Source: an uncultured Candidatus Saccharibacteria bacterium (GTDB lineage: Bacteria; Patescibacteriota; Minisyncoccia; Phycocordibacterales; SW-6-46-9). From it: 51,821 nt of DNA. The stretch lies in the NCBI GenBank assembly GCA_964452185.1, contig CAYVKO010000003.1:1-51821 (forward strand). The letters run 5' to 3'. Each line of letters begins with the position of its first letter. Within the stretch, counting starts at the first letter, position 1. Positions 116 to 50,452 of the stretch are shown piece by piece. The position numbers were made by a program, and so were the translations under genes. Under the pieces are notes generated by a model, which saw only the letters and a program-made list of their open reading frames with translations, did no database searches and had not been told where the DNA came from.

Positions 116-1831
116 TTAAGTTTTTACTTTGGAAAGAATAAGGGGTAACAGTAGCAAAACACTAGCAAAAGCGAATGTAATCATGACGGCTCCAAGTATT
201 CCGTAAGTTGCAAACATCGGCATCGGTGCTGTAGCTAGAATAAGAAATCCAACGGTGCTGGAGATAAAGGCAGTAAGGCTGGCACGCATGGTTGTATCAG
301 CCACCTCTAATAGAGCCTCTCGTGCATTATCCGCTTGCTTCCTTTTCTGGCGAAAGCTTTGAACGATATGGATGGCGTAGTCGATTCCGACTCCAAAGGA
401 GACTGCCGCTATCGTGACTGTGACGAAGTTTAATTTAAAACCGGCAACCCCCATTAACCCATACGTCCATAATGTTACGAATACAATTGGTGTTATCGTG
501 ATCAGGGCATACTTCAACGATCTAAATGCTCCCAATAACATTATGAGTACCAACAAAGCTGCCACCATGAAGGTTTTGGTGAGTGAGTTAGTTACTGCAT
601 TTAGGCTAGCCTCACGCGTGAATGGTGATCCGGTTACTCCATAATCATTTGCTAATTCTTTAAGAGGCTGTAAATCTTCCAGAATGGCCTTACGAGATTG
701 TGTAACTGTAGTTAGATTTCGAGTACCAGACACCTCAACAACAAGGAGTGCCGCTCGAGAATTACTGCCAGGTAGTTCAGTAGTACGCCAGCCACCTAAG
801 GGTAGTACCAGATCGTTAGAGTCAGGTATGTGTGCTAAGTATTGGTTATTTTGCAGATTGCCCATTGTCTGATCAAGCGCCTGGCGAGCTTGCTGTGTAT
901 TTAGATTGCCTGTTACAAATATTGAAGCCCGTTCGCCGCGAATACCTTCCCAGTTAGCATCACGGACGTTTAAGCTTTTAACAAAGTCAGAATCGGAGGA
1001 TATAAAATCTTGCGGCGTTACTCCGCGCTGAATGCGAAAAATCCCCAGTATGGAGACTGTTGTGGCAACTAGCAGTATTCCGACTACCAGAGCCTTATGA
1101 TTAAGCATGTTGTCTACAACTTCCTTCAGAGACCACTCGACACCACTTGATGTACTACGAGGTTTCCACTCATCCCATATTGACAAAAGTAGTGGGGCAA
1201 AAATACCCATTACAATAAAGGAAGCACACGCAGCAAATATACCGGTTAAAGCAAATGACTGTACAGCCTCAACCGGTGAGACGTAGTTTGCCCCGAAAGC
1301 GATTGCATTACTTATACCTGCCAAAAGTAACGCAATACTTACTCCCCTAACTGCGGTAGTTAAGTAACTAATACTATCGTTATCTCCAGTGTCTTTTTTG
1401 GTTTGCTTCACATGTTCATACTCGGTGGTAGCGTAAATGAAAAAGTCAATACCTATTGCCATAAAAGCAAGCGGTAGAATAACTTGTATCATTAAAGAGG
1501 TTTTAATAACACTGCCGGCCAGGACTGGAAATCCTAGTATCCATACAAATAAAGTTGCAAGCCCGCTTAGAGCCACTGCTCCCACTCTCCAGGATTTAAG
1601 CATGGCTCCAGTTAAGGCTGCTAGCGCAAGAATAAGCAACATGTTCCTGATCAAGACACCGGCGGAAAAACCTTCATCTTCAGCTTCGAGATTTAAGTCA
1701 ATCCCGATACCGAGCAGTTTTGCATTTGAGTTGTCGAGGAATAATTGATTTTGTACCTGCCTGTTGAATTTTTCTTTATTTACTATCTCGGGTGTGCTAC
1801 CTATGGTGCGTCGAAAAACACCACCGCCCAA
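116..1831 (-). CDS. MMPL/RND-superfamily membrane transporter, C-terminal three quarters (TM2-TM12)
   Basis: 571-aa ORF with two blocks of about 5-6 hydrophobic helices separated by a ~200-aa soluble loop. The layout is SSD-like (GIDFFIY..., GVGIDYAIH). Only a TTG start is available, and the ORF is in frame with the upstream 1859..2407 ORF. Confidence 0.8.
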   Translation of the reverse strand: MGGGVFRRTIGSTPEIVNKEKFNRQVQNQLFLDNSNAKLLGIGIDLNLEAEDEGFSAGVLIRNMLLILALAALTGAMLKSWRVGAVALSGLATLFVWILGFPVLAGSVIKTSLMIQVILPLAFMAIGIDFFIYATTEYEHVKQTKKDTGDNDSISYLTTAVRGVSIALLLAGISNAIAFGANYVSPVEAVQSFALTGIFAACASFIVMGIFAPLLLSIWDEWKPRSTSSGVEWSLKEVVDNMLNHKALVVGILLVATTVSILGIFRIQRGVTPQDFISSDSDFVKSLNVRDANWEGIRGERASIFVTGNLNTQQARQALDQTMGNLQNNQYLAHIPDSNDLVLPLGGWRTTELPGSNSRAALLVVEVSGTRNLTTVTQSRKAILEDLQPLKELANDYGVTGSPFTREASLNAVTNSLTKTFMVAALLVLIMLLGAFRSLKYALITITPIVFVTLWTYGLMGVAGFKLNFVTVTIAAVSFGVGIDYAIHIVQSFRQKRKQADNAREALLEVADTTMRASLTAFISSTVGFLILATAPMPMFATYGILGAVMITFAFASVLLLLPLILSKVKT

Positions 1832-1858
1832 CTTTTCATTATCAGCTTGTACAAAAAA

Positions 1859-2407
1859 TTAAAAAGCCGGAGCGTGCCATTTACCACTTTTTTGAGTCAG
1901 CTTTTGCGAGGTTAGAAGGCGTAAATAATTTCCGTAGCGAGGGTGTGTAAGGGCTTGGTCAAGAGCAGATCGAAAAGTTGAGCTACTGGCAGTGACAAGC
2001 GACTCGTCTTGGCGCTGTAGAATTTCACTGACAGCATCAGCTAATGTGAAGAAGCCTTTATATGTAGTTTCGCCAAAATCCGGGTGACGAAAATTTACTA
2101 AATATTGATTGCCAAGATCAGAATTTCTTAATTTATTGCTTTGATTGAGAAGGTTTAATAAAACTGACTGTGTGAGGACATTTGAACCGTCAGGGCTATA
2201 GATTTCATACCGAACTGTATGTACGTCTTGAGGAAATAATTTATCGGCGCGCTGTTGTAACTGATATGCTTCACCCTGAACGTCAAGTGAGGCTTGTGGC
2301 TGTGGGGACGCAAATCCTTTATAAGCATGGTAGCCAAAGAAGATAGTAGCGAGCATTATGACACTTACAAAAACCTGTCGATATTTCTTTTTGGTCAAAA
2401 AGTTCAT
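1859..2407 (-). CDS. N-terminal fragment of the same MMPL/RND transporter (TM1 plus start of first extracytoplasmic loop)
   Basis: 182 aa with an N-terminal helix (VFVSVIMLATIFFGYHAY) followed by a soluble domain. It ends at TAA (1859-1861), and 9 sense codons later the 116..1831 ORF continues in the same frame. Confidence 0.6.
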   Translation of the reverse strand: MNFLTKKKYRQVFVSVIMLATIFFGYHAYKGFASPQPQASLDVQGEAYQLQQRADKLFPQDVHTVRYEIYSPDGSNVLTQSVLLNLLNQSNKLRNSDLGNQYLVNFRHPDFGETTYKGFFTLADAVSEILQRQDESLVTASSSTFRSALDQALTHPRYGNYLRLLTSQKLTQKSGKWHAPAF

Positions 2408-2445
2408 AGTCTTGAGCTGGGTAAGATCAGTAAGTTAAACCACTG

Positions 2446-4074
2446 CTATTCTTTCACGGCATCTATCTCAACATGGAATGTTGACCCCTCTCCCTTTCCT
2501 GGTGAAGTAGCCCATATCTTGCCACCGTGAGCTTCTATAATCTGTTTGGCGATGTAGAGACCAAGACCAGACCCGATAACGTTCACTTCGTCTGCTTCAT
2601 CCGCTCGAGAGAACTGCTCGAAGATAGCCTCTCTGTCTTCCGGCTCAAGGCCGATTCCGGTGTCTTCCACTTCTATCTTTACTTCACCGTCACGCCGCAG
2701 AAGCTGGATGGTGATACCTCCTTCCTGTGTATACTTGATAGCATTGTCCACGAGGTTGGTTATGACTTGCTTGAACTTCCCGACGTCCACTCGTGCCGGA
2801 TACGAGTCATGCGAGTCGGTGGTAAGGTTAAGCGAGAGTCCTTCTTGCTCGACTGTGGCTTCTACTTCTTCTACCACCTCTTTTGCAATCTCTTCTATGT
2901 CCGTCTTTTTGAAATTGTAATCCATTCGCCCGTCTTCAATGCGAGATATGTTGAGAAAGTCATCAACGATGCGAGCCAGGTTTGTACTTGATTTGAGAAT
3001 ACGGCTGAGAGGTTCTTTGAGCTTTTCGGGAACTTCTCCATATGAACCGTCGTTTATCAGTGATGCATAGCCTTTAATAGACGTAAGTGGTGACCGGAAC
3101 TGGTGACTGGCAATACTCAGCATCTTTGACTTTTGTTTGTCCATAAATTTAAGTTCTTTGTTGGCTTCTTCTAAATCATCTGCTAGTTTTTGAATTTCCT
3201 TTCGTGCGTTTACTTCTTTGATAACACTTCTAATCAAGAATATTCCAGCAACACTTACAAAAAGCAGTATTGAACCACGTATTATATAGTCATTTAGTCC
3301 TTCAGAGATTAAAAACTGGATAAGAATAATAACCCACAGAACAAAAACAAATAATTCCGTAGCTATTATTTTTATGTTGAATAAGCGATGCTTAATTATA
3401 GCCAAAGTAGTAGAGAGCAGAAATGCAGTTGTAAATAACGGGCCAAAATATGAAATTGTGTAATTAGAGATAATTAGCGGAAGTATCAAACTTGATAGAG
3501 TAGCTAACAAAGTGGTTACCGCTAAGCCTATGAAGAAGTATAATATTTGTTTCCTGATTAATTTATCATCCTCTTGGAGCAACTTTTGGAATAAAAGAAA
3601 AAGGGCATATCCCACGTAAGTAAGAAAGTATAAGAGGTAGATATAAACAAGTCCTCCCCACTGGCTTATGGAAACTATCTGCTTATTTAGTAAATTATTT
3701 TGTTTTAAGCTGATATCAGCTACTACCAGGTCGGTGACTAAAGATAATAAGGCGATTCCTATTGTGGTAGCTCCCAGCAGTAATTTTTTGCCATACTTAA
3801 TTTCAACTTGTGTCTGTTTAGGAAAGACAAAAGAAAACCTCAACATGAAATACGGCATGAAGGCAGCAAAAAAGAACGATGCTCTAGCTTGAAGCAAGGC
3901 AAGATCATGAGATTGCCAATAACCCGACAAATATATACTGAGTGCCCACAGAATTACTGAGGTTATCAGTAACGCAAAATATTTTTTAATTGTACCCTTT
4001 TCTCCATTAAGCACCACTAAAGTCGCCAGAACAAAGTTGAATACAAGAGGAAAAGCGAAAATAAGTGTATACAT
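2446..4074 (-). CDS. Sensor histidine kinase with ~9-TM N-terminal sensor domain
   Basis: About 290 aa of consecutive hydrophobic helices, then a coiled coil. H-box SIASHQFRSPLTSIKGY. HATPase N/G boxes (NLVDNAIKYT, DTGIGL, GSGLGLYIAK). Confidence 0.9.
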   Translation of the reverse strand: MYTLIFAFPLVFNFVLATLVVLNGEKGTIKKYFALLITSVILWALSIYLSGYWQSHDLALLQARASFFFAAFMPYFMLRFSFVFPKQTQVEIKYGKKLLLGATTIGIALLSLVTDLVVADISLKQNNLLNKQIVSISQWGGLVYIYLLYFLTYVGYALFLLFQKLLQEDDKLIRKQILYFFIGLAVTTLLATLSSLILPLIISNYTISYFGPLFTTAFLLSTTLAIIKHRLFNIKIIATELFVFVLWVIILIQFLISEGLNDYIIRGSILLFVSVAGIFLIRSVIKEVNARKEIQKLADDLEEANKELKFMDKQKSKMLSIASHQFRSPLTSIKGYASLINDGSYGEVPEKLKEPLSRILKSSTNLARIVDDFLNISRIEDGRMDYNFKKTDIEEIAKEVVEEVEATVEQEGLSLNLTTDSHDSYPARVDVGKFKQVITNLVDNAIKYTQEGGITIQLLRRDGEVKIEVEDTGIGLEPEDREAIFEQFSRADEADEVNVIGSGLGLYIAKQIIEAHGGKIWATSPGKGEGSTFHVEIDAVKE

Positions 4075-4077
4075 AGG

Positions 4078-4707
4078 CTATTTGCTAGTCATTTTGTTTA
4101 GTAGATGCTCTACTTTAAATTGCAACGGCACAACCTCCACCCCTAATGACGTAGTTGGAGGACCGATCGGGGATATATCAATACCTCTTTTCTGAGCTGC
4201 CTTTAAAAGATTTTTGTCGAGAGCTGCAATAATATAATTTATATCATTATCTTGACAAAATTGTAGACATGAGCGGATGAGTTGCAAAGAAACTAAAGAA
4301 TTACGCTTATCAGGCATCACACATAATCGCGATATTTCAGCGATATGTTCTGAACTTACTTCTTCAGGTAATATTGTATCACCAAAGATGGTTACAGCTC
4401 TAAACTCCTTGGATTCAGATAAAATGAGACGAACTGTACCTATAGATTTTTTGTTTTCTTTTGCCAAAAAGTGAATTGAATTTTTATCATATTTATCGAC
4501 GTCAATAGCATCTTCTCTATCTTTATTGATTATGTTTAGTTCTTTAGCATAAACACGCCATCGAATTTTTTGACACTTTCTTATTTCAGCCTCTGAACTA
4601 GCTATCTTAATTTTAATGTTCGATTTGTTGATTTTGTATTGAAGTAAAGGAAATCGGATGAAGTTAGGAAGGTGCCAAATGATTTTTTTAAACAAGAAAT
4701 GTATCAT
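4078..4707 (-). CDS. GNAT-fold N-acyltransferase of the FeeM/OlsB/LuxI-like (N-acyl amino acid synthase) type
   Basis: 209 aa. The pattern A..E....Q.IR..VYA.EL......D.D.YD..S.HFLA......IGTVRL followed by AEISRLCV..D.R matches, from memory, the Acetyltransf_5-type N-acyl amino acid synthases. Stop codon lies 3 nt from the kinase ATG. Confidence 0.55.
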   Translation of the reverse strand: MIHFLFKKIIWHLPNFIRFPLLQYKINKSNIKIKIASSEAEIRKCQKIRWRVYAKELNIINKDREDAIDVDKYDKNSIHFLAKENKKSIGTVRLILSESKEFRAVTIFGDTILPEEVSSEHIAEISRLCVMPDKRNSLVSLQLIRSCLQFCQDNDINYIIAALDKNLLKAAQKRGIDISPIGPPTTSLGVEVVPLQFKVEHLLNKMTSK

Positions 4708-4720
4708 GCAATTCTATAAA

Positions 4721-5431
4721 TTATTTTGTTGCAGAAACCAGCAAACTCTGATCTTCATATACTGACTTTTCATCATGAATTTCTCTAAATCCTACTTCTT
4801 GCAATAATTCCTTTTTCTCTCCTTTCTCAAAAAAATAAAAATCTTTTTCCTTTTTGATAAGGTGATTGTAGTAAATAATTTTTATCGTTGGAGCTATTAT
4901 TTTTAATACTTTCAGTACTGTAGCAGTGAACCCCTCTTGCTTATACAACTTATGAATTCCTCCTAGATATATTTTAATTGCACTCCATCCTTTCTGCGGA
5001 TTTACCAACACTATTTTTCCTTTTGGTTTTAATATTCTGTAAAGCTCTCCAAGCGCCTTTTTGTGTTTTTGGGGTGGAATGCTGTACAACACATTTATGC
5101 ATACAATCTTATCAAAGTACTCTTTTTTAAATGGGAGACGATTCGTTAAATCGGCTTGTTTTACGTTTGCATCTGGTTGCTTGGTTTTATGCATTTTTAT
5201 ACCTGCAAGGGTAGAATCAACTCCATAAACTTCCAAGTCTTTTGTATCTCTTAATTTTTTTTCTATCTGTACCATTAAATTTCCAGTTCCAGATCCTGCA
5301 TCAAGTACTCTATCTCCAGGTTGAATATCTATTTCTTCCACGGCTTTGTTGAGCATCTCTTTATAAGGAATCAGTTCATTCAGTACGTCGTAAACTTCAA
5401 AATATTTTTTCCAGAATTTTTGATTAAGCAT
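4721..5431 (-). CDS. Class I SAM-dependent methyltransferase
   Basis: Motif I VLDAGSGTGNL, acidic motif II VYGVDS, FDKIVCINVLYSI, and post-III LKPKGKIVLV. Confidence 0.85.
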   Translation of the reverse strand: MLNQKFWKKYFEVYDVLNELIPYKEMLNKAVEEIDIQPGDRVLDAGSGTGNLMVQIEKKLRDTKDLEVYGVDSTLAGIKMHKTKQPDANVKQADLTNRLPFKKEYFDKIVCINVLYSIPPQKHKKALGELYRILKPKGKIVLVNPQKGWSAIKIYLGGIHKLYKQEGFTATVLKVLKIIAPTIKIIYYNHLIKKEKDFYFFEKGEKKELLQEVGFREIHDEKSVYEDQSLLVSATK

Positions 5432-5511
5432 AATTATTCTACACTTTCTTTAAGGGGGTAATTGTACAGTCTTATTTACTCACACTTTATCACGATCATT
5501 AATGGAAAATT

Positions 5512-6174
5512 CTACTTTTCTCTATATTTCCGGGCTATCTTTTTAGCTACCTTCTTGCAACTCTCGGGCTTAGAAATATTTTCATGAGAGTCGGGTAATT
5601 CATTGACTTCCACTGGCTTTTTAAAGACCACTCCCATACTGCGTCTTCGTAGTAAGAAATCAGTAAAGGTCATGCCCTTAATACCTTCAATGCGAACAGG
5701 AATTACGGGTTTTTGGGTTGTTCCAGCCAGATAACCCACTCCCCCCTTCGCTTTCTCTCCGCCAACTTTTCCTTCGGGGAAAATGAGTACGCTATGCCCA
5801 TCTTCTGCTATTTCTATCTGATTTTTGAGGGATTTTTCATAGTTTCGAAGTCCTGAATATGCTGGATATGCTCCCATGAACTTAAAGAAGTTTCCGCCAT
5901 AGAACTTCCCTCGCAATCCTTTATCTTTGTAGAATTCCTTTGTGCGAGAAACAGGAAAAATCGGCGAAAAATATGTGGTTAGCGGTATAGCAGCCGGAAG
6001 AAAGAATCCGTCAAGTTCATTTATGTGATTGCTGGCTAAAATAAAGTTACCTTCAACCTCTTTAATATTCTCTAACCCTTTAACCTCTAGACGGCAAAAG
6101 AATTTTAAAAGTGTATACACAATCGGACGCATTACTGTCTGAAATAAGTATGGCCAGATTGCGTAAAAGTTCAT
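5512..6174 (-). CDS. PlsC-family lysophospholipid/lyso-lipid O-acyltransferase
   Basis: HX4D motif (SNHINELDG), FPEGK motif and VIPVRIEG motif, with an N-terminal hydrophobic anchor. Confidence 0.85.
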   Translation of the reverse strand: MNFYAIWPYLFQTVMRPIVYTLLKFFCRLEVKGLENIKEVEGNFILASNHINELDGFFLPAAIPLTTYFSPIFPVSRTKEFYKDKGLRGKFYGGNFFKFMGAYPAYSGLRNYEKSLKNQIEIAEDGHSVLIFPEGKVGGEKAKGGVGYLAGTTQKPVIPVRIEGIKGMTFTDFLLRRRSMGVVFKKPVEVNELPDSHENISKPESCKKVAKKIARKYREK

Positions 6175-6314
6175 ATAAAAATAGGATTACTACTAATATC
6201 ACTACCTTCTGCTAGTATGTAAACAGTACATTACAAATTTATATTGTCAACTATGCCTTCAAGCGCCTCATAAAGCACCATTTTTATTATAACCCCTTTA
6301 GGAATGTGGTATTT

Positions 6315-6380: not shown

Positions 6381-7469
6381 TTACATACCTTCCTCTTGCA
6401 GCTCTTCTAGGAGTTCTATTTGTTTCTTATTAAGGTTTTCGGGGATATCGATATTTATCTTTACAAGCAGGTCTCCGCGGTTGCCGCGCCTGTCGGGGAT
6501 ACCGCGCTCTTCTACTCGCAGTTGCTCGCCGTCAGTAATGCCGGCTGGTATCTTTAGAGTGATCTTGGAGCCGTCAAGGGTTTCTAAAGTTCGCTCGCTG
6601 CCTAATGCTGCTTCGGACATCTTGATATCGAGGTTTCTGATTAGGTCACTCCCACTCTTTTCAAACTTCTCATTGCCAGAAACATGCAGCTTCACATATA
6701 AATCACCGGCCGCTCCACCCGGTGCCTTTTGCCCTTTGTTGGGGACGCGTACCATTTCTCCGTCCGATACGCCGGCCGGTATCTTTATCTCAATCGTTTC
6801 GGATTCATTGGCTACTCCGCTACCGCCACAGCGTGAGCACGGGTTCTCGGGGATTTCTCCGGTACCGAAGCACTTCTTGCAGACTTGTTGGGTCTTAACG
6901 CGGCCTAGCATCGTCTGTTGGATACTTTCGACCTGTCCGGCACCGTCACACCGTGGACACTCTTTTAGATCGCCGTCAGTGGTTCGCTCTCCGTTACACT
7001 TAGAGCATTCAGTCTTTCGGCTTAATGAAATCTCTTTTTCGACTCCGAAAACAGACTCCTTGAAAGTTAATTCAGCATCAACCTGGACGTCCTTGCCTGT
7101 CTGTTGCTTTTTTTGTTTTGTTCTACCTGCTCCTCCGCCAAAGACTTGAGAGAATATATCGCCCATGTCGAAACCTTGGGCGCCGCCAAAGCCACCGCCT
7201 CGAGCACCGCCAAACTGCGAGAAGCCTTCAAAACCTCCTCGACCGCCTGTGCCAGCTTGGTCGTACTGCGCACCAAACTTGTCATACTTGGCGCGTTTTT
7301 CTTTGTCTGATAGAACACTGTACGCTTCACTTATCTTCTTGAACTTCTCTTCGTCCCCATCCGATTTGTCCGGATGGTGTTCGTGAGCCTTCTTGCGATA
7401 GGCTTTTTTTATTTCTTCCTGGCTGGCATCTTTATCTACGCCAAGAATGCTGTAGTAGTCTGTTGACAT
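6381..7469 (-). CDS. dnaJ: Chaperone DnaJ (type I)
   Basis: J domain with HPD (YYSILGV...HEHHPDK), a G/F-rich linker, and four CxxCxGxG zinc-finger repeats. Confidence 0.97.
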
Positions 7470-14385: not shown

Positions 14386-15663
14386 TTACTCTAAGATTGT
14401 ATTGACTGTAATATCTTCCGCTTCTGTTGGCAGTGATCGCTTCCAGAATGGTCGAGTAGTTACCTCAGCTTCTTCTATATTGTCGTAACTGGAGAGAACT
14501 TCATCCAAGCTGTCTTTGCGAAGTCCTCGCATGTCGCGAGCAAGCGATCGGTCGTTGTACTGCCATACAGCAACGGAGTCTCCGGCTATGTTAAAGGTAA
14601 ATGATTGGTCTTCGGTTGGGGAAAACTCTTCTATGTTCTCTATGGAGAAATCAAAGTCTTCTAGACCCTGGACTCGAACATTAGCGTCATCAGCCACTTC
14701 AACCCCGGCTGATTCCATAAGGGCTGCAGACAAGGCTCGTTGATCAAACGTTATGGCGTGCAGTGATCCTTGCACTGTAACTTGAGCTTCTTGTGAAGAA
14801 TCGGAGTTGTCAGTGTTTGTATTAAATGAAAAGAAGCGACCTTGGTCATAAACAACAACGCCTGCAGGGAGTTCGTTTCCGAGCTTCTCAACCAATCTTG
14901 CCTCCAGATTGCTGGATAATGAGTTCACCAAGTTTTGCTTTGTGCTGGAGGAAACTACAGGTACCTCTCCGGCTATACCACCAGTCATTGGCGAAGCCAG
15001 GGTGGCATAAACTTCCTGGTCGTCACCTGATCCGGCCAAGCCCGGAACAGAGAATTGTTCTTTAGTGCGTGTATTGTACTCGTTTCCGGCTTCGGCGGCG
15101 ACAGCAGTTACGGTGACTGACCCTGGAGTGCCTCCGGACTGAGCTGGAACCTGTACCGGTTCTTGTATGCGGTAAACGTTTCCTTCCGGAGACTCGAATC
15201 GTGTACGCGCTACCAACCGAATTGAATCACTTCCTTCATTGTGGATGGTTAGCTCACCTGAACTTCTGGCTTCCTGGTATTCACTGCCGGTTGATTCGGC
15301 TTGCTGGCTAGAAGAAGCGGTAACAGTTGTCACCATGTACGGCACATCGGCGGTGCTTGAAGCGGTGCTGGCAGTGTATGTTTCATCTATGGAAATCGAA
15401 GCAGTCTTTGGATGTACATCAACGCTCGTCTCAGAAAAGACTACTGAAAACGCGAAAAACAAGAAAAGTACAGTTACTATACCAATAAACCACAGTCCAT
15501 ACGTTGTGGCTTGGCTTGCGTTCCTGCGTGGTGGGCGTCCGTCAGGTGGAGTCTCTTGCTCATTATTATCCTTACCATGACCTCCTCCCCCTGACCGTTC
15601 TTTCTTGAGTTTTTGGATAGAACGCTTATTTCTTTTTGTGATACCCGATACAGATCGATTCAT
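14386..15663 (-). CDS. Hypothetical bitopic membrane protein (basic/Gly-rich cytoplasmic tail, one TM, ~350-aa extracytoplasmic domain)
   Basis: N-terminus KRNKRSIQKLKKERSGGGGHG, then TM helix YGLWFIGIVTVLFLFFAFSVVF. The Ser/Thr-rich ectodomain contains GSVTVTAVAAEAGNEYN, faintly reminiscent of baseplate-J-like repeats (memory only). Confidence 0.6.
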   Translation of the reverse strand: MNRSVSGITKRNKRSIQKLKKERSGGGGHGKDNNEQETPPDGRPPRRNASQATTYGLWFIGIVTVLFLFFAFSVVFSETSVDVHPKTASISIDETYTASTASSTADVPYMVTTVTASSSQQAESTGSEYQEARSSGELTIHNEGSDSIRLVARTRFESPEGNVYRIQEPVQVPAQSGGTPGSVTVTAVAAEAGNEYNTRTKEQFSVPGLAGSGDDQEVYATLASPMTGGIAGEVPVVSSSTKQNLVNSLSSNLEARLVEKLGNELPAGVVVYDQGRFFSFNTNTDNSDSSQEAQVTVQGSLHAITFDQRALSAALMESAGVEVADDANVRVQGLEDFDFSIENIEEFSPTEDQSFTFNIAGDSVAVWQYNDRSLARDMRGLRKDSLDEVLSSYDNIEEAEVTTRPFWKRSLPTEAEDITVNTILE

Positions 15664-15678
15664 CGTTTAAATATTTTA

Positions 15679-16884
15679 TCATGTTTTATTTACTCTTGCT
15701 TCACAAGCAGACAAAACACTTGCAGCCAAGAAGTGATCCACTGCAGATCGTTTTGTGTGTAATCGCGAACTTAGCAATTCACTGTCCACCTCATGAACAC
15801 GGAATCGCGAACGTGTCACCAGGTGATCCTTAACCGAAGTATCTGATACAAAATCGGTTAACAAGGATCCGACGCTGTGTCCTGATAATACGTAAGCATG
15901 TGAAGGTAATGATACATCTGGTGAAAATTCACCTATTGAAGAAGCAAAAAGTTCCTGCCACCGATCTTTAGCCTCTGTAACTACATCGTCTATTTCTTGC
16001 TTGTGCTCACTCGTCTGGTGGTTGTCTAGATAGAGCTGGAGGCGTGAGCGAGCATCAGATGGCGGTCGGTCCAAGGACTTAGCAACCGTTCGGGTCAAGA
16101 AGTGTTCTCCAAGCGGGAAAGATACGGATTCTGTCAGCACACCGTTTTCTACCAGGAGAATTTCTGTAAGTTCATCTCCTGCGTCAACCAAAAGAAAACT
16201 TTTTGGGTGATCGAATACATTTGTAAATAGCCTGCTAACAGCGGCAGTAAATGAATTGAAATGCAGCTGATCCGTGTTAAGTCGGCTGCCGATAGCTTCT
16301 CGAGTAATATTCGCAATTTGGGTCGGAAGCATGCTTTTGTAAATTGCCACCCGTAAAGTATTGGTTGCAACTTCTTGAGGCTTGTTCAGCCTATATCCGT
16401 TACACCAAATGCCAAATACCGCCTCATCAAGTTCCTCAAGATCCTCTTCTTTTTTCGTGTGATTAGCTACGGTTTCTTCCCGGAACAGCTCATCGGCTTT
16501 CTGGCGAGCTAAATTCATACGTTCTTCATCAACCGTGAAAGGATTATCTTTGTTGATGGTTACGGTTTGAGTGCTTCCAACGTACCATGGTGCTGCAAAA
16601 AAACACTGAATTTCTTGTACCGGCGAAATGTCTGTTTTTCCGGTTATCTTACTGCTTACTTTTTGTAGTCTTTCGGCAGCAGAATCAACAGCTTGTTTCG
16701 TCATATTAATGAGCTTGCTCGTGTCGTGCTCTTTCATGAAGGATATCGGCTTGCGATGCGACCACACGACCTCCGGTTTTTCCTCCTCGGAAGTGACGAC
16801 GATCGCAGCGCCTATACTGCCTGACCTAATATCAAAAACAGCTTTGGTTTTTGAAGTGCTTGATTTCGTTTCAAAAAGACCCAT
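15679..16884 (-). CDS. Actin-fold (ASKHA; FtsA/PilM-like) protein with degenerate phosphate-binding motifs
   Basis: VFDIRSGSIGAAIV occupies the phosphate-1 position and FLLVDAGDELTEILLVENG...PLGEHFLT occupies the phosphate-2/adenosine position. The canonical DxGxT and DxGGGT glycines are largely replaced. Confidence 0.5.
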   Translation of the reverse strand: MGLFETKSSTSKTKAVFDIRSGSIGAAIVVTSEEEKPEVVWSHRKPISFMKEHDTSKLINMTKQAVDSAAERLQKVSSKITGKTDISPVQEIQCFFAAPWYVGSTQTVTINKDNPFTVDEERMNLARQKADELFREETVANHTKKEEDLEELDEAVFGIWCNGYRLNKPQEVATNTLRVAIYKSMLPTQIANITREAIGSRLNTDQLHFNSFTAAVSRLFTNVFDHPKSFLLVDAGDELTEILLVENGVLTESVSFPLGEHFLTRTVAKSLDRPPSDARSRLQLYLDNHQTSEHKQEIDDVVTEAKDRWQELFASSIGEFSPDVSLPSHAYVLSGHSVGSLLTDFVSDTSVKDHLVTRSRFRVHEVDSELLSSRLHTKRSAVDHFLAASVLSACEARVNKT

Positions 16885-16921: not shown

Positions 16922-18700
16922 TTATTCCAGAACGGCCTTGATGCGCCGAACACCTGCAGAGCTGGAGGTCTCTTTAGTGATTTTAAAGTGGCCTAGCTCA
17001 CCGGTGTTGTCTACGTGTGGTCCTTTGCAAATTTCTCGAGAGTAAATTACTCCTCCTTTCTCGTGATCTTCAGGATGCTCCATTTCATAAACGGTCACTT
17101 CATCCGGGTAGTTAGCCTGGTCAAGGTAAATGGCCTCATCCTTCGCCTCTTCGAGCGGTTTTTCTTCACAAGAGACTTCCAGCCCGGCTTCTATTTTCTC
17201 GTTAACTCGATTTTCGATCTCTTCAATCTCTTGGTCGGTGAGAGCCTCATCGTGCGTAAAGTCGAAGCGCAACCGCTGTGTAGTGATGTTAGAGCCGGCC
17301 TGACTTACGTGTTTTCCCAGTACCTCCCGTAATGTCTGGTTAAGGAGATGGGTGGCAGTGTGGAGTTTTACTGTTTCTTCTTTTTGGTTGGCCAACCCTC
17401 CCTTGAATTGCTTCTTGCCGGCAGCTCGAGACTTTTCTTTGTGTTTTTTCATTTCCTCTTCGAAAGCCGGTTCATCTACAGCAACTCCTTTTTCCTCTGC
17501 AAGCTTTTTGGTGATTGAGAGTGGCAGTCCGTGGGTTTGGTAGAGATCGAATGCTTCCTTTCCGGAGATGTCGCCGTCAATTTTTTCAAACTGCTTACGC
17601 CCACGAGTAAGAGTTTTCCGGAAGCTTTCCTCTTCTTGCTCTACAGTGGTCTTGATAAGATCCAGGTTTTGTTCAACTTCCGGATACCAACCTTTGTACA
17701 TTTCTACTACCGGATCAACAAGCTTGGTGAGCGATCCGTCTTCTAGACCTAGTTTGTCTGCATGCTCTACAGCTCGTCGCAGTACACGCCTGAGCACGTA
17801 ACCTCGCCCGGTATTGTCGGGTGTAACCCCATCGGCAATGATAAACACGGCTGTACGCACGTGGTCGGCGACTATCCTTTCGGCTTTTTGGTTAGAGTCC
17901 TCTTTTAGGTCATCGATTAAAGAAACAATGGAAGCAAATAAATCTGTCTCAAAAATAGAGTCAGCATTCTGCATTACCATGGCCAGGCGTTCCAGGCCGG
18001 CACCGGTATCCACATTCTGTTGGTCGAGTTTGCCGACTACCTCTCCATCTTCTTTCTCATATTCCATGAAAACATCATTCCAAACTTCAATTACTTGACC
18101 TCGGCCGTCTGCTTCCTTAAACCCTTGGAGATCAAGTTCGCCGAGTCCGTCTTCGGTGACGTCATAAAACATTTCGGTATCTGGACCGCACGGGCCATTT
18201 TCGCCCGGGCTCCACCAGTTGTCTTTCTCGCCAAGAAAATAAATGCGGTTTTCCGGGATACCCAGTTCCTGCCAGATTTCCGCTGACTCAGTATCTTTGT
18301 CTACCTGGTCGTTTCCTTTAAAGCAAGTGATGTACAGGCGATCCGGGTTCAGTCCGAGACCTTCCTCTTCACTAGTAAGAAATTCATAGCTCCATTCTAT
18401 GGCCTCTCTTTTAAAGTAGTCACCCAGCGACCAGTTTCCCAGCATTTCAAAAAAGGTGTCGTGCGTATCGTCTCCAACCTCCTCGATATCTTGTGTGCGC
18501 ACACACTTCTGCACATTTACCAACCGATTTCCTTTCGGGTGGTCTTGTCCGAGAAGATACGGAACAAGTGGCTGCATCCCGGCAGTCGTAAAGAGTACTG
18601 ACGGGTCGTCTTTGGGTACGAGGCTGGCTGAGGGAATAACTGCGTGATCTCTATTTTCAAAAAAGTCTAGAAAACGTTGTCGTATTTCGTTCGATTTCAT
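16922..18700 (-). CDS. alaS: Alanine--tRNA ligase, compact form (592 aa, no C-Ala domain)
   Basis: FF...DH...PS.SLVP.DDPS.LFT.AGM.Q; WW.PGE.GPCGP.TE.F.D; editing-domain motifs HTATHLL and CKGPHV. The protein ends about 20 aa after the editing core (...GVRRIKAVLE). Confidence 0.93.
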   Translation of the reverse strand: MKSNEIRQRFLDFFENRDHAVIPSASLVPKDDPSVLFTTAGMQPLVPYLLGQDHPKGNRLVNVQKCVRTQDIEEVGDDTHDTFFEMLGNWSLGDYFKREAIEWSYEFLTSEEEGLGLNPDRLYITCFKGNDQVDKDTESAEIWQELGIPENRIYFLGEKDNWWSPGENGPCGPDTEMFYDVTEDGLGELDLQGFKEADGRGQVIEVWNDVFMEYEKEDGEVVGKLDQQNVDTGAGLERLAMVMQNADSIFETDLFASIVSLIDDLKEDSNQKAERIVADHVRTAVFIIADGVTPDNTGRGYVLRRVLRRAVEHADKLGLEDGSLTKLVDPVVEMYKGWYPEVEQNLDLIKTTVEQEEESFRKTLTRGRKQFEKIDGDISGKEAFDLYQTHGLPLSITKKLAEEKGVAVDEPAFEEEMKKHKEKSRAAGKKQFKGGLANQKEETVKLHTATHLLNQTLREVLGKHVSQAGSNITTQRLRFDFTHDEALTDQEIEEIENRVNEKIEAGLEVSCEEKPLEEAKDEAIYLDQANYPDEVTVYEMEHPEDHEKGGVIYSREICKGPHVDNTGELGHFKITKETSSSAGVRRIKAVLE

Positions 18701-35457: not shown

Positions 35458-36396
35458 TTAACTATTATCTTCTTCGGCTAATAATTCGTTGTCATTATCT
35501 TCATCCAGCAACTGATCTACAGCATCTGTGATGATCGGCATAATGTCATCATAAAAATTTAAATCCACAATATCCTGAAGTGGGAACCATTTAGCATCGT
35601 CCAAACCACCTTTGTCCTTTGGTAATTCCAGTGGTTCATGTTCAGAACGAGCCAGGTAGTACACTACTTGTTTGCGAATTTTACCTTTATCAGGATCAGC
35701 CGCTACGTATTCATTTTCTCCGAGTTTTTCTTTCAATTTAATGTCCAGTCCTGTTTCCTCTTTTACCTTCTCTTTAACCCCTTCTTTTGTGTCAGATTCT
35801 TCAATATGTCCTTTTGAGAGAGTCCAATGACCAAAAACATCGTGTACAAGAGCCAACTCTATATTGCCGTCATTTCTGGCGTACACCACAGCTCCGCCGA
35901 GTTTCTCTATAGGCATCTCTTCGTACGGGATATCTTTGATTTTCTTGGAGGAGGTTTGGTCTTTCCCAGGTTCGCCTATTTCTTTGTAAACCGCTCCGAT
36001 AACACCATTTACGAAAGAGCCACTTGATTCACCGCCGAACCCTTTAGCTAACTCAATAGCTTCGTTAATAGCTACTTTTGGAGGCACTTCTTCTCGGTCT
36101 GCATATAAAAGTTCATATAAGCCAATTCGCAATATGTTGCGATCTACGGTAGCTATTTTATCAAGTGGCCAATGAGGAGCGGCAGAAGTTATAACTTCAT
36201 TTAATTTCTCCTGTTTTTCAACCACCCCTTCAAGCAATGAGTATATATAGGAATAGTCGTCCATTCCAGGTGCAAACTCGTGAGCATTCCGTTCCAGAGC
36301 TGACTTTAGATCAGGTTTGGTATACGACTGATCACGAAAGTCCCATTCAAAAAGGGTTTGCATAACAATTGATCGTGACACGTGTCGATTTGCCAT
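35458..36396 (-). CDS. nusB: NusB antitermination factor fused to a C-terminal Nudix-like domain
   Basis: Residues 1-~140 are NusB-like (R..VMQTLFEWDF..., DRNILRIGLYELLY, INEAIELAK.FG). Residues ~165-312 carry a Nudix-like box (SKGHIEESDTKEGVKEKVKEETGL). Confidence 0.8.
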   Translation of the reverse strand: MANRHVSRSIVMQTLFEWDFRDQSYTKPDLKSALERNAHEFAPGMDDYSYIYSLLEGVVEKQEKLNEVITSAAPHWPLDKIATVDRNILRIGLYELLYADREEVPPKVAINEAIELAKGFGGESSGSFVNGVIGAVYKEIGEPGKDQTSSKKIKDIPYEEMPIEKLGGAVVYARNDGNIELALVHDVFGHWTLSKGHIEESDTKEGVKEKVKEETGLDIKLKEKLGENEYVAADPDKGKIRKQVVYYLARSEHEPLELPKDKGGLDDAKWFPLQDIVDLNFYDDIMPIITDAVDQLLDEDNDNELLAEEDNS

Positions 36397-36770: not shown

Positions 36771-36813
36771 TTTATATAAAAAACCTCCAGTGCGATCTTA
36801 TGAAGCACTGGAG
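36771..36813 (-). terminator. Intrinsic terminator of the Nudix gene
   Basis: Minus strand reads CCTCCAGTGC-TTCATAAGATC-GCACTGGAGG (10-bp perfect stem; the loop contains the stop codon), followed by TTTTTTATAT. Confidence 0.75.
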
Positions 36814-37304
36814 GTGGTGGTTGAGAGTAGTTTTTTTTGAAGAAGCTCTAGCACCTTTCCGTGAGCTTTGGGCATCTCATAAGGAGACAAATCTTCTAGA
36901 GGTATTCGTATTGGAGGCTCCATTTTAGAGTCTTGAAACGGAAGTTTTTTGTCAACTTCGAAATCAGATATGGCATAGAAAAACTTACGGTGTGGGTCAC
37001 TGCATTCGTCATGCAAGGAGTAGTACAGTAAGTTTAAGACCTCGAAATTAACAATCCGCGCCTCCTCTTTGAGTTCACGAGAAAGTGTATCCTTGTGATC
37101 CTCGCCCACTTTAGCTGACCCCCCAGGAAACTCAAACTTCCCGGTGCTTTTTCTTCTGACAATCCAAACAACATACTTGTTGGGTCCGGTTTTTTCTACA
37201 GGGGCGGCTTTCACAGCCGTGTTTACGGGTTTAAGACGATTTCTGTAGAGCTTCCACAAAAATGAGTCAGGAAACAATCCTGCCTTAACGTTTTTGCAAA
37301 ACAC
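36798..37304 (-). CDS. Nudix hydrolase
   Basis: Canonical Nudix box GGSAKVGEDHKDTLSRELKEEARI. The only start available in the ORF is a GTG. Confidence 0.85.
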   Translation of the reverse strand: MFCKNVKAGLFPDSFLWKLYRNRLKPVNTAVKAAPVEKTGPNKYVVWIVRRKSTGKFEFPGGSAKVGEDHKDTLSRELKEEARIVNFEVLNLLYYSLHDECSDPHRKFFYAISDFEVDKKLPFQDSKMEPPIRIPLEDLSPYEMPKAHGKVLELLQKKLLSTTTSSAS

Positions 37305-47389: not shown

Positions 47390-47947
47390 CTATTTAACTT
47401 TGACTTTTTTGATATAAGGATCGACGTCCATACCTAATTCCAGGCCGAATCTATTCAAGATTTCCCTAGACTCTTTTATGGCCGAAAGGTGGAAGTCGGA
47501 CTCTTCCAAAGAGTGTCGGCCCGCGAGATCTCCGAGTGTCATAACTCCGGCAGCTTCAAGGCTTTTTCGAGTGCTATACATAAGCTCCAAATCTTCGATT
47601 GGAGTTTGCAGAAGCTCGCTAATCTCAACCCCTGAAGCATATTTGGTTCGAACTCTTTGGAGGCAGTGCGCCACATCCTCCCTACTTTCCCTTTTGGCAA
47701 TTTCTTTTGCTTTCGGGATAGCCCACGAAATAACTTCTTTCTTTCCGGACAACCCGTCAAAACTCCAGATCCAGCCAAACTTGGTGGATAGATTAACTGT
47801 TTCCGCTAATCTGTCCATATCCATATCTTCCAGTCCATCGCGTCCAAGCAGTTTCTTCTGCTTATTGATTGTCTCGAGGATTTTTCTGGCAACACTTTCT
47901 TGCACTCCAAGGATAATTCCTTGCTCGAGTTTCTTTGTCGATTCCAT
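47390..47947 (-). CDS. Hypothetical protein with RNA polymerase alpha-CTD-like helix-hairpin-helix domain
   Basis: The C-terminal ~65 aa IEDLELMYSTRKSLEAAGVMTLGDLAG...EILNRFGLELG parallels the rpoA CTD pattern (compare this genome's own rpoA: IENLDLPTRTTNALERASIRTAGGLVG). Confidence 0.6.
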   Translation of the reverse strand: MESTKKLEQGIILGVQESVARKILETINKQKKLLGRDGLEDMDMDRLAETVNLSTKFGWIWSFDGLSGKKEVISWAIPKAKEIAKRESREDVAHCLQRVRTKYASGVEISELLQTPIEDLELMYSTRKSLEAAGVMTLGDLAGRHSLEESDFHLSAIKESREILNRFGLELGMDVDPYIKKVKVK

Positions 47948-49264: not shown

Positions 49265-50452
49265 ATGGGCAAACCTTTCGTTGTTTGGCTACTCGCTATA
49301 CTTCTCATCAGCATTGCAGCTTTTCCAGAAGCGACAGAAGCGCAAAAGCAGAGAGTGCAGCTTAGTCCGGACACCGCCCGGTTTCGTATTTCTGCAGAAG
49401 AGATGGAAACCGGCAGTCCGTTTGTGGACAAAGCGTTTGAGCGCAGGTTGGATTACCTGTTTGAAAACGCTATCCCAGATCGGTTTGAAACGAACCCTAA
49501 AAATCTTCACTTTATAGTGTTGGGTAAAACCAATTCCGAGAAGTGGAATGCGGCTTTAAGAGCTGACAGCCGTTGGGGAGTCTTGGATAGTTTCAACAGA
49601 GCTGCTATTCATAATGCCTCCAACGAACAAAAGAACGACTTGCTCGAACGGTTTTTGGAGATTCAGCGTGCCATGTCCGTTAAGTCCTGGATGGTAAAGC
49701 AGGGGTATGCTGAACCAGCTAGGATCCAGACCGGTATTTATGGTGCTGTGGACGAGGCGGAAAGCGGTACGGTAAGTAAGACGGTTGACATAGTTGTCAT
49801 TCGTCGCAACTCCACTTCCGCCTCTAATCTCTTGGCAGACCTTCCTGCATTCGAGGATCTTCAAGACCGGCAAGAAGATCAAGATTCTGCAATACGAGAG
49901 AACCGAGATGAGATCAACAAGAACCGAGATGCGGTTAATGAGAATAGATCAGATATTGAATCGCTCGAAAGAGAGGTAGACCAACTTGATCTACTGCTTG
50001 GCGCTCTCGGCTCTCGTAATGACTTAGGAAACCTTGTCGGAGGTCATGTAGGGCTTCGCCTTAACAACGTACGACTCTTTCATCATGTGGATGCTTCTGC
50101 ATCTTATATGACGGAACCGACAACTTCGGGAAGTATCAAGCTTCCGCAGGTTGGCATGACGGACATGCGAAGTCATGCTTTTCGTGTGGATCTTGCTTTC
50201 TTCCCTGTTCGTTACGCAGGTCTTGTTGCTGGTGTCCAAAGAACCGAAGAAGTGTTCTTGGATGTAGGGCAGAATGGATCCTCTAAAAAGGCTGGACTTG
50301 CAGGCCTTCGTCTGGAATTACCGATAGGTTGGTTTTCCATTTCGGCTGAAGGACTGTGGGCGCCTGGTGTCTATTCACGCTTCGATCAGCCTGAAGATGA
50401 GACCAGCATGAATAAGTTTCAGGTAGGTCTTCGAATAACGACTGCACTCTAG
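49265..50452 (+). CDS. Secreted protein: OmpA-C-like domain, coiled coil and beta-rich C-terminal domain
   Basis: Signal peptide VVWLLAILLISIAAFPEATEA. QRAMSVKSWMVKQGYAEPARIQTGIYG resembles the OmpA/MotB RA..V...L...G....RI...GYG segment. Includes NRD-repeat coiled coil ENRDEINKNRDAVNENRSDIESLEREV. The last ~150 aa alternate hydrophobic and polar residues. A GAGGA SD lies 4 nt upstream of the ATG. Confidence 0.55.
   Translation: MGKPFVVWLLAILLISIAAFPEATEAQKQRVQLSPDTARFRISAEEMETGSPFVDKAFERRLDYLFENAIPDRFETNPKNLHFIVLGKTNSEKWNAALRADSRWGVLDSFNRAAIHNASNEQKNDLLERFLEIQRAMSVKSWMVKQGYAEPARIQTGIYGAVDEAESGTVSKTVDIVVIRRNSTSASNLLADLPAFEDLQDRQEDQDSAIRENRDEINKNRDAVNENRSDIESLEREVDQLDLLLGALGSRNDLGNLVGGHVGLRLNNVRLFHHVDASASYMTEPTTSGSIKLPQVGMTDMRSHAFRVDLAFFPVRYAGLVAGVQRTEEVFLDVGQNGSSKKAGLAGLRLELPIGWFSISAEGLWAPGVYSRFDQPEDETSMNKFQVGLRITTAL

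Follow-up and report, generated by a model that had tools for sequence, protein, structure and literature searches.

In the 51,821-nucleotide stretch of contig CAYVKO010000003.1 (assembly GCA_964452185.1, an uncultured Candidatus Saccharibacteria bacterium) that was analysed here and is referred to in its entirety as the window, the run of co-directional minus-strand genes at positions 116–6174 is best explained as a composite rather than as one dedicated pathway. The elements in question are a class I S-adenosylmethionine (SAM) methyltransferase (MT; 4721–5431, minus strand, 236 aa), which is the first gene of a variable cassette, a FeeM-type acyltransferase of the GNAT superfamily (4078–4707, minus strand, 209 aa; below simply the GNAT), and the orphan histidine kinase that follows them (2446–4074, minus strand, 542 aa). 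Judged from sequence comparisons, the GNAT would be a synthase of N-acyl amino acids (NAS), and on balance we favour the view that MT and NAS make a methylated lipoamino acid monitored by the adjoining seven-transmembrane (7TM) sensor, i.e. that they form an enzyme/sensor pair; taken as a whole, the composite character of the region included, this reading is given slightly more credence than doubt.

The kinase is readily recognised from its profile matches (HisKA_7TM PF16927, 39.8 bits; HisKA, 57.2; HATPase_c, 98.8). It is divided into a sensor half (residues 1–300; 3175–4074, minus strand), consisting of the HisKA_7TM domain and two more transmembrane (TM) segments, with about nine hydrophobic segments within residues 1–285, and a core (2446–3174, minus strand), in which the dimerisation and histidine phosphotransfer domain with the phospho-acceptor H324 is followed by the N (443), G1 (471), F (485) and G2 (501) boxes. 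Against the kinases of the three closest relatives—the loci L003, L005 and L006—the core is 66–70% identical overall (52–84% in bins), which marks them as orthologous, whereas the sensor is 23–26% identical overall (12–36% in 50-residue bins), the identity jumping from 0.32–0.36 over residues 251–300 to 0.81–0.84 over residues 301–350. The sensors of these three relatives are mutually 0.38–0.85 identical across the sensor region and, among 38 kinases, are the weakest matches to the window sensor (24–36 bits), more distant kinases scoring 69–95 bits. The same relatives are without the MT–GNAT block, yet they possess the orthologous kinase core and the PlsC-type acyltransferase gene that opens the run in the window (plsC; 5512–6174, minus strand, 220 aa), the transporter being present in L003 only. 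The comparison thus shows that the window departs from its closest relatives in one block, made up of MT, GNAT and the initial ~300 codons of the kinase gene; MT and GNAT are also low in G+C (~33%, against a mean of 43.6%). If this block was imported, its donor already had MT–GNAT adjoining a 7TM kinase.

The same pattern could arise with no functional link between cassette and kinase, the site past plsC being a recombination hot spot in a compact genome, where a single replacement ended by chance inside the best-conserved portion of the kinase gene, and the kinase sensing the general state of the membrane or envelope, an explanation that we hold to be unlikely. It would fit the slot behind plsC, the content of which differs widely among relatives, as well as the position of the breakpoint in the best-conserved stretch of the kinase, i.e. 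a natural crossover site, and the short gaps found irrespective of the upstream gene. It is opposed by the argument just given, that a sensor arriving together with MT–GNAT implies a donor in which the two already stood beside a 7TM kinase, and by the adjacency of GNAT and HisKA_7TM in other loci, along with an MT family that accompanies the GNAT family in several phyla.

Concerning this adjacency, 13 Patescibacteria-type GNAT loci were considered, namely L012–L014 and ten further ones (L015–L024) sharing at least 36% identity with a Patescibacteria GNAT. In every one of the 13, the neighbours of the GNAT include stand-alone HisKA_7TM proteins (as many as four), a 7TM(-GAF) kinase or, in most loci, both, and a response regulator is often also present. 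The stand-alone HisKA_7TM paralogues are of ~220 aa and are found, up to four in tandem, directly upstream of the GNAT (e.g. L014 3478–6943; L020 3272–5926). The loci L013 and L014 contain, in addition, a ThiF-family gene and radical SAM/SPASM genes, with a 73-aa open reading frame (ORF) in L013, and the record titles of L018, L021 and L023 read ‘uncultured Gammaproteobacteria’. In loci of the Nitrospirota/Thermodesulfobacteriota type (L026, L032, L041, L078, L081, L085 and L089), NAS, PAS kinase and regulator follow each other in a row. As to the methyltransferase, its full-length homologues (25–35% identity) adjoin GNAT homologues in L012 (twice), L018, L024 and L069, the match in L071 being partial (26% over 134 aa).

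That the GNAT is an N-acyltransferase like FeeM, as an earlier reading of this DNA from its letters alone (the sequence-only reading) had held, and not a generic acetyltransferase, is borne out by the profile searches. It scores 56.2 bits with the FeeM family PF21926 (cut-off 27) and 51.4 bits with PF13444 (cut-off 22.4), while TIGR03694, the model of the PEP-CTERM/exosortase system-associated acyltransferases, is, with 89.2 bits under a cut-off of 111.95, nevertheless the best-scoring curated model. These three models are matched by all 40 nearest relatives of the GNAT, about half of which weakly match models of OlsB or of N-acylhomoserine lactone (AHL) synthases. The residues D71, D74, R93, E124, S126 and R127 show little or no variation (alignments A1 and A4), E124 being the counterpart of the catalytic glutamate of FeeM (E95) and Nas354 (E103), with the equivalence to FeeM derived via the LuxI alignment and not directly; in NAS enzymes, the catalytic glutamate was established by mutagenesis (PMC4897644). 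The AlphaFold2 model (mean predicted local distance difference test, pLDDT, 88.4) finds its best Foldseek matches in LasI, BjaI, TofI and FeeM with TM-scores of 0.62–0.68, the AHL synthases and FeeM matching equally well, so that the fold does not separate an AHL synthase from an NAS. The GNAT is thus an enzyme that transfers acyl chains and has the LuxI/FeeM subfold; it is most probably a type I NAS and is predicted from its family to make long-chain N-acyl amino acids from acylated acyl carrier protein (acyl-ACP). Its residues 1–28 form an N-terminal extension, common to several of the nearest homologues, modelled as two helices (pLDDT ~70) of hydrophobic and basic character, which may serve membrane association.

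The GNAT is nearly an orphan: of 1.8 billion cluster representatives, a single one (P0123) attains 37% identity, a word-indexed search through 5.8 billion proteins returned one homologue at 30% identity, and a scan of GTDB genomes found no close relatives. For the most part, the nearest homologues (P0123 to P0131) come from short contigs of Logan or ENA; as queries for the locus searches, the alignments A1 and A2 proved too divergent. Craig et al. in 2011 reportedly connected NAS with the PEP-CTERM system; among the scanned ORFs of the window there are no exosortase or PEP-CTERM genes. That NAS genes are linked to the PEP-CTERM/exosortase system is described in PMC7293339 and PMC4897644, the latter of which calls the physiological function of NAS enzymes unclear.

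A different chemistry behind the same kinase link—a LuxI-like AHL-type synthase with SAM as the acceptor, or an enzyme acylating a peptide—is judged distinctly unlikely. Among PDB sequences as well as among structures, the GNAT finds its best matches in BjaI (E 4e-8) and LasI, both of them AHL synthases, and PF00765 lies slightly over its cut-off (27.5 vs 24 bits). For a peptide substrate, one may point to the radical SAM/SPASM genes and the small ORF in the related loci, which are typical of peptide maturation. A weakly PaaK-like (phenylacetate-CoA-ligase-type) adenylating enzyme is encoded in L012. On the other side, FeeM, PF13444 and TIGR03694 score far above the AHL synthase models, and in the alignment with BjaI, in which the arginine, both aspartates, the second arginine, the glutamate and the last arginine are preserved and a conserved phenylalanine is changed to tyrosine (Y53), the tryptophan conserved in LuxI enzymes (W33 in LasI) is matched by I59 of the GNAT. 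Moreover, the window is without a small precursor ORF and a radical SAM gene, and no LuxR-type receptor (Autoind_bind/GerE) is found among its ORFs scanned.

The MT, which contains motif I (LDAGSGTG) at residue 43, matches only generic class I models (Methyltransf_11 and Methyltransf_25, both ~58 bits), its best NCBIfam match being the DVU_1556 family (56.8 bits vs a cut-off of 155). The locus L012 encodes, between GNAT and MT, a 507-aa protein (3196–4719) with weak matches to PaaK-type phenylacetate-CoA ligases and to the DVU_1553 adenylating enzyme; the DVU_1553 and DVU_1556 matches are hints of a shared uncharacterised gene set and of a coenzyme A (CoA)-type acyl donor.

The plsC product matches PF01553 with 40.9 bits (cut-off 23), possesses the HX4D motif at H50–D55 and the FPEG motif at 132, and is 58–65% identical to Paceibacterota-type homologues recorded as lysophospholipid acyltransferase. 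Its surroundings were surveyed in loci of homologues at 42–65% identity. The gene is preceded by dnaJ in L003, L004, L006, L010 and L011, whether or not the downstream genes are there. In L010 and L011, the order grpE–dnaK–dnaJ–plsC is followed by unrelated genes; in L003, dnaJ and plsC are followed by a gene for a 548-aa protein of no family, the 7TM kinase, the MMPL transporter and a tRNA synthetase; in L005 and L006, an epimerase gene and a 545-aa slot gene separate plsC from the 7TM kinase, with the tRNA synthetase next in L005; and in L008 and L009, the genes are leucyl-tRNA synthetase, plsC, a 7TM protein on the opposite strand, a 307-aa protein and the 7TM kinase. A metagenome scan with the window sensor domain added the order plsC, acyl-ACP-reductase-like gene and 7TM kinase (L095, L097–L100 and L116), as well as plsC, haloacid dehalogenase (HAD) and 7TM kinase (L107). 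Across these loci, plsC and, one or two genes downstream of it, the 7TM kinase thus make up a conserved backbone, and the slot between them is variable, its content changing by lineage. In the relatives, the slot holds an acyl-thioester-reductase-like gene, a short-chain dehydrogenase/reductase (SDR)/epimerase gene or a HAD gene, which gives the neighbourhood a lipid flavour. The gene plsC is present without the GNAT in L003–L011, L095–L100, L107 and L116, in some of these also without the kinase; as it follows dnaJ in relatives that have no GNAT, plsC predates the GNAT at the locus. To judge from these homologues, its product is probably a housekeeping lysophosphatidate acyltransferase rather than a partner reserved for the GNAT.

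The slot genes themselves deserve a brief description. The conserved soluble protein of ~545 aa encoded before the 7TM kinase (L003 5346–6986, L005 1786–3420, L006 2673–4310 and L004 10856–12157) belongs to a family that has no match in Pfam or NCBIfam, and its gene is preceded by the SDR/epimerase gene in L005 and L006. An identity with the 507-aa protein of L012 was considered and rejected, there being no similarity between the two. The acyl-ACP-reductase-like gene stands directly before the 7TM kinase (L095 4800–5957, L097 4510–5583, L098–L101, L103 and L116) and its product scores 84–120 bits with TIGR04058 and 153–159 bits with the N-terminal domain of PigE. In a more distant relative (L007 2327–9909), plsC is divergent from a cluster of UbiA, DUF3419, NAD_binding_4 reductase, PEP-utilising enzyme and GNAT genes, with a CMAS-type methyltransferase nearby; this cluster may be another lipid-related set.

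These surroundings bear directly on the pathway that the sequence-only reading had proposed, i.e. an OlsB/OlsA-type aminolipid synthesis, in which the GNAT N-acylates, PlsC adds an ester-linked chain, the MT N-methylates, the MMPL transporter exports and the kinase regulates the operon. The gene content and the common orientation fit this proposal; OlsB is of the same superfamily as FeeM and LuxI, among the GNAT's 40 closest relatives 21 show weak matches to OlsB models, the PF01553 domain is common to OlsA-type enzymes (PMC11631085), and other lipid-type enzymes occupy the slot in the relatives. It is nevertheless improbable in our estimation. Many loci that lack the GNAT have plsC behind dnaJ or close to the kinase, and none of the 13 GNAT/7TM loci has PlsC or MMPL genes at distances of up to 6 kb. 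The scores with the OlsB models NF052554 (36.6 bits) and NF052555 (32.9 bits) are far under the cut-offs of 350 and 320, the same being true for the GlsA model (18.7 vs 260 bits). Furthermore, the MMPL gene is interrupted by an in-frame stop and missing in most relatives, and plsC is separated by 80 bp from the low-GC cassette. Of the gene orders, plsC–slot–7TM kinase and GNAT–7TM both recur, whereas the joining of PlsC and MMPL to the GNAT does not. More generally, an N-acyltransferase beside a PlsC-type gene is insufficient to infer an OlsB/OlsA-type aminolipid pathway. The likeness to OlsB/OlsA and GlsB/GlsA with OlsG lies in a co-directional GNAT N-acyltransferase, PF01553 O-acyltransferase and methyltransferase (PMC11631085), the differences in these low scores, in a plsC inherited independently and in GNAT homologues that elsewhere occur without PlsC.

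Returning to the enzyme/sensor pair favoured here, several points weigh against it. The 13 GNAT/7TM loci share ancestry and amount to about two or three independent associations, and the closest GNAT homologue, P0123, is on a short contig and adds no gene context. The low G+C content of MT (0.326) and GNAT (0.333), compared with the mean for the window ORFs of 0.436 (standard deviation 0.036), had suggested using low GC as proof of a foreign sensor, too; this was weakened, as the sensor-coding parts of the relatives are also GC-poor, and since the G+C content of the sensor is not diagnostic, it is the discordance in identity that carries the argument for block exchange. The placement of the window sensor in a clade of GNAT-specific sensors was likewise unsupported, its best match (L095) standing beside a reductase-like gene. 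The gap upstream of the kinase is 2–16 bp, or an overlap, in every relative, whichever gene precedes it, and as such tight spacing is usual in these compact genomes, the 3-nt gap between GNAT and kinase is no evidence of coupling. The kinase standing next to the N-acyltransferase, an arrangement that the sequence-only reading had not recognised, is the feature that is truly conserved and tells the most. The HisKA_7TM domain has no known ligand (PMC5847659). Finally, no gene for an acyl carrier protein, fatty acid synthesis or an acyl-CoA ligase is present in the window.

Under the favoured reading, the NAS would use an acyl thioester as the source of the acyl chain and attach this chain to an amino acid at its amino group, E124 serving as the catalytic base, and the MT would methylate either the NAS product or the amino acid precursor. 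The resulting amphiphile would enter the membrane and be recognised there by the matched 7TM sensor, which would govern the autophosphorylation of H324 and pass the signal to an unlinked response regulator. No response regulator or receiver domain is encoded anywhere in the 51.8 kb of the window, even at E≤10, just as the sequence-only reading had stated for the vicinity of the kinase, and none adjoins the orthologous kinases in L003, L005, L006 and L008. It may be that the amphiphile is released and acts as a signal between cells, or that it is a feedback-controlled part of the membrane, the latter option being kept alive by the lipid-type genes in the slot of the relatives. A step further, and offered only tentatively as it is rather doubtful, MT, NAS and 7TM kinase would constitute a self-contained autoinducer-synthase/receptor module, i.e. 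a quorum-sensing-like system based on lipoamino acids in the candidate phyla radiation (CPR)/Patescibacteria, which would move between lineages as a cassette that includes its sensor, in the manner of the pherotype cassettes of agr and comQXP; the tandem stand-alone HisKA_7TM paralogues of related genomes would then take part in the same signalling system.

Several established systems invite comparison. The signal synthase gene lies beside that of a polytopic membrane sensor kinase in LuxM/LuxN, AinS/AinR and CqsA/CqsS. The region studied resembles the pairs of the LuxM/LuxN type in having a synthase for a lipid-like small molecule, with the AHL synthase fold, beside a multi-TM kinase without an extracytoplasmic domain; it differs in the families of both the sensor (HisKA_7TM) and the synthase, in the lack of a linked receiver or regulator and in a signal that is only predicted. 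Polymorphic synthase/sensor cassettes are known also from peptide quorum sensing, i.e. from agrBDC and comQXP, where, as here, variation in the genes for biosynthesis goes along with variation in the N-terminal membrane sensor, the kinase core being conserved. Those cassettes, however, are alleles of the same genes, whereas here the slot of the relatives is occupied by unrelated genes (for the 545-aa protein of no family, an epimerase or a reductase-like product), and the product predicted for the window is a lipoamino acid, not a peptide. With the FeeM-type synthases, the GNAT has in common the top families, the catalytic glutamate together with the D..D, R and ESR motifs, and the predicted LuxI/FeeM fold, and outside the CPR some members have the synthase followed directly by a kinase and a regulator; the GNAT is distinguished by the score under the TIGR03694 cut-off, the helical N-terminal extension of ~28 residues, a 9-TM membrane kinase in place of a soluble PAS kinase and a window devoid of exosortase/PEP-CTERM. 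A set of NAS, MT and ThiF-like genes in Planctomycetota has been proposed to make modified N-acyl tyrosines (PMC7293339). These stieleriacine-type clusters (NAS, methyltransferase and ThiF/TcdA-like gene) share with the window the pairing of an NAS with a SAM methyltransferase, and a ThiF-family gene stands beside the GNAT in L013 and L014; the window, by contrast, has no ThiF-like gene and one NAS only.

While synthase/receptor-kinase pairs and the NAS–PEP-CTERM link are thus known already, an association of GNAT with HisKA_7TM was not found described in the literature searched, the searches for this pairing or for such synthases in CPR having returned nothing relevant. Cells of the CPR/Patescibacteria are tiny, have for the most part not been cultured and in many cases live attached to other cells; the means by which they perceive such partners, or the state of their own membrane, are little understood. 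If the reading is true, the recurring pairing with a LuxI/FeeM-type synthase would indicate a class of ligand for the widespread HisKA_7TM, and it would provide the NAS enzymes with a physiological role.

The remaining gene of the run encodes an HAE3/MMPL-type resistance-nodulation-division (RND) transporter (116–2407, minus strand). It appears as two ORFs (ORF 5, 1859–2407, minus strand, 182 aa; ORF 6, 116–1831, minus strand, 571 aa) that lie in one frame and are split by a single in-frame TAA (1859–1861). The whole is a gene of 763 codons aligning end to end with the intact 763-aa protein of L003, in which the corresponding codon is CAA (Gln) and the flanking residues align; the TAA is either a nonsense mutation, making this a pseudogene, or a sequencing error. 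The product matches PF03176 (81.7 bits), TIGR00921 HAE3 (113 bits) and, in part, HpnN, all NCBIfam scores being under the equivalog cut-offs, and includes a sterol-sensing-like region. The gene occurs only in the window and in L003; in L005, L008 and L095–L116, the kinase is not followed by it. It differs from the HAE3/MMPL/HpnN-type transporters in its interrupted frame and in a link to the cassette that is not conserved; it is an accessory neighbour, broken as sequenced, and the dedicated export assigned to it from the sequence finds little support.

With regard to the layout, the sequence-only reading had counted six co-directional ORFs on one strand with gaps of 80, 13, 3, 38 and 27 bp. 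Strand, ORFs and gaps are exact, but as ORFs 5 and 6 are a single broken MMPL gene, the cluster consists of five genes. All five family assignments made there hold in the profile searches, the HX4D and FPEG motifs and the ~9 TM segments being confirmed, and the CPR-like host suggested there agrees with the names of the homologues (Paceibacterota/Patescibacteria). The upstream neighbours of the cluster are grpE–dnaK–dnaJ, with dnaJ at 6381–7469. The boundaries proposed for the cluster, from a terminator after dnaJ to one at the window edge, coincide with two hairpins. The first, terminator-like and 3' of dnaJ (6353–6323, minus strand), has a stem of 13 bp with a T-rich tail behind it and marks where a new transcription unit begins, with a promoter-like site at 6223–6195 (9 of 12 matches, weak evidence). 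The second, G+C-rich and with its strand unassigned (1–27; 10-bp stem), lies ~90 bp beyond the MMPL stop, is cut by the window edge and may be a bidirectional terminator.

Outside the cluster, all window ORFs of at least 150 aa with a Pfam match are housekeeping. Three window ORFs are without a Pfam match at E≤1e-4 (15679–16884, 401 aa; 47390–47947, 185 aa; 49265–50452, 395 aa), and the ORF adjoining the first of them (14386–15663) has the GlxA beta-barrel domain as its sole match. The ORF for alanyl-tRNA synthetase (16922–18700) encodes just 592 aa and stops shortly past the second additional domain. The ORF at 35458–36396 combines NusB and NUDIX hydrolase domains in one fused protein, and a second NUDIX gene is located at 36798–37304.

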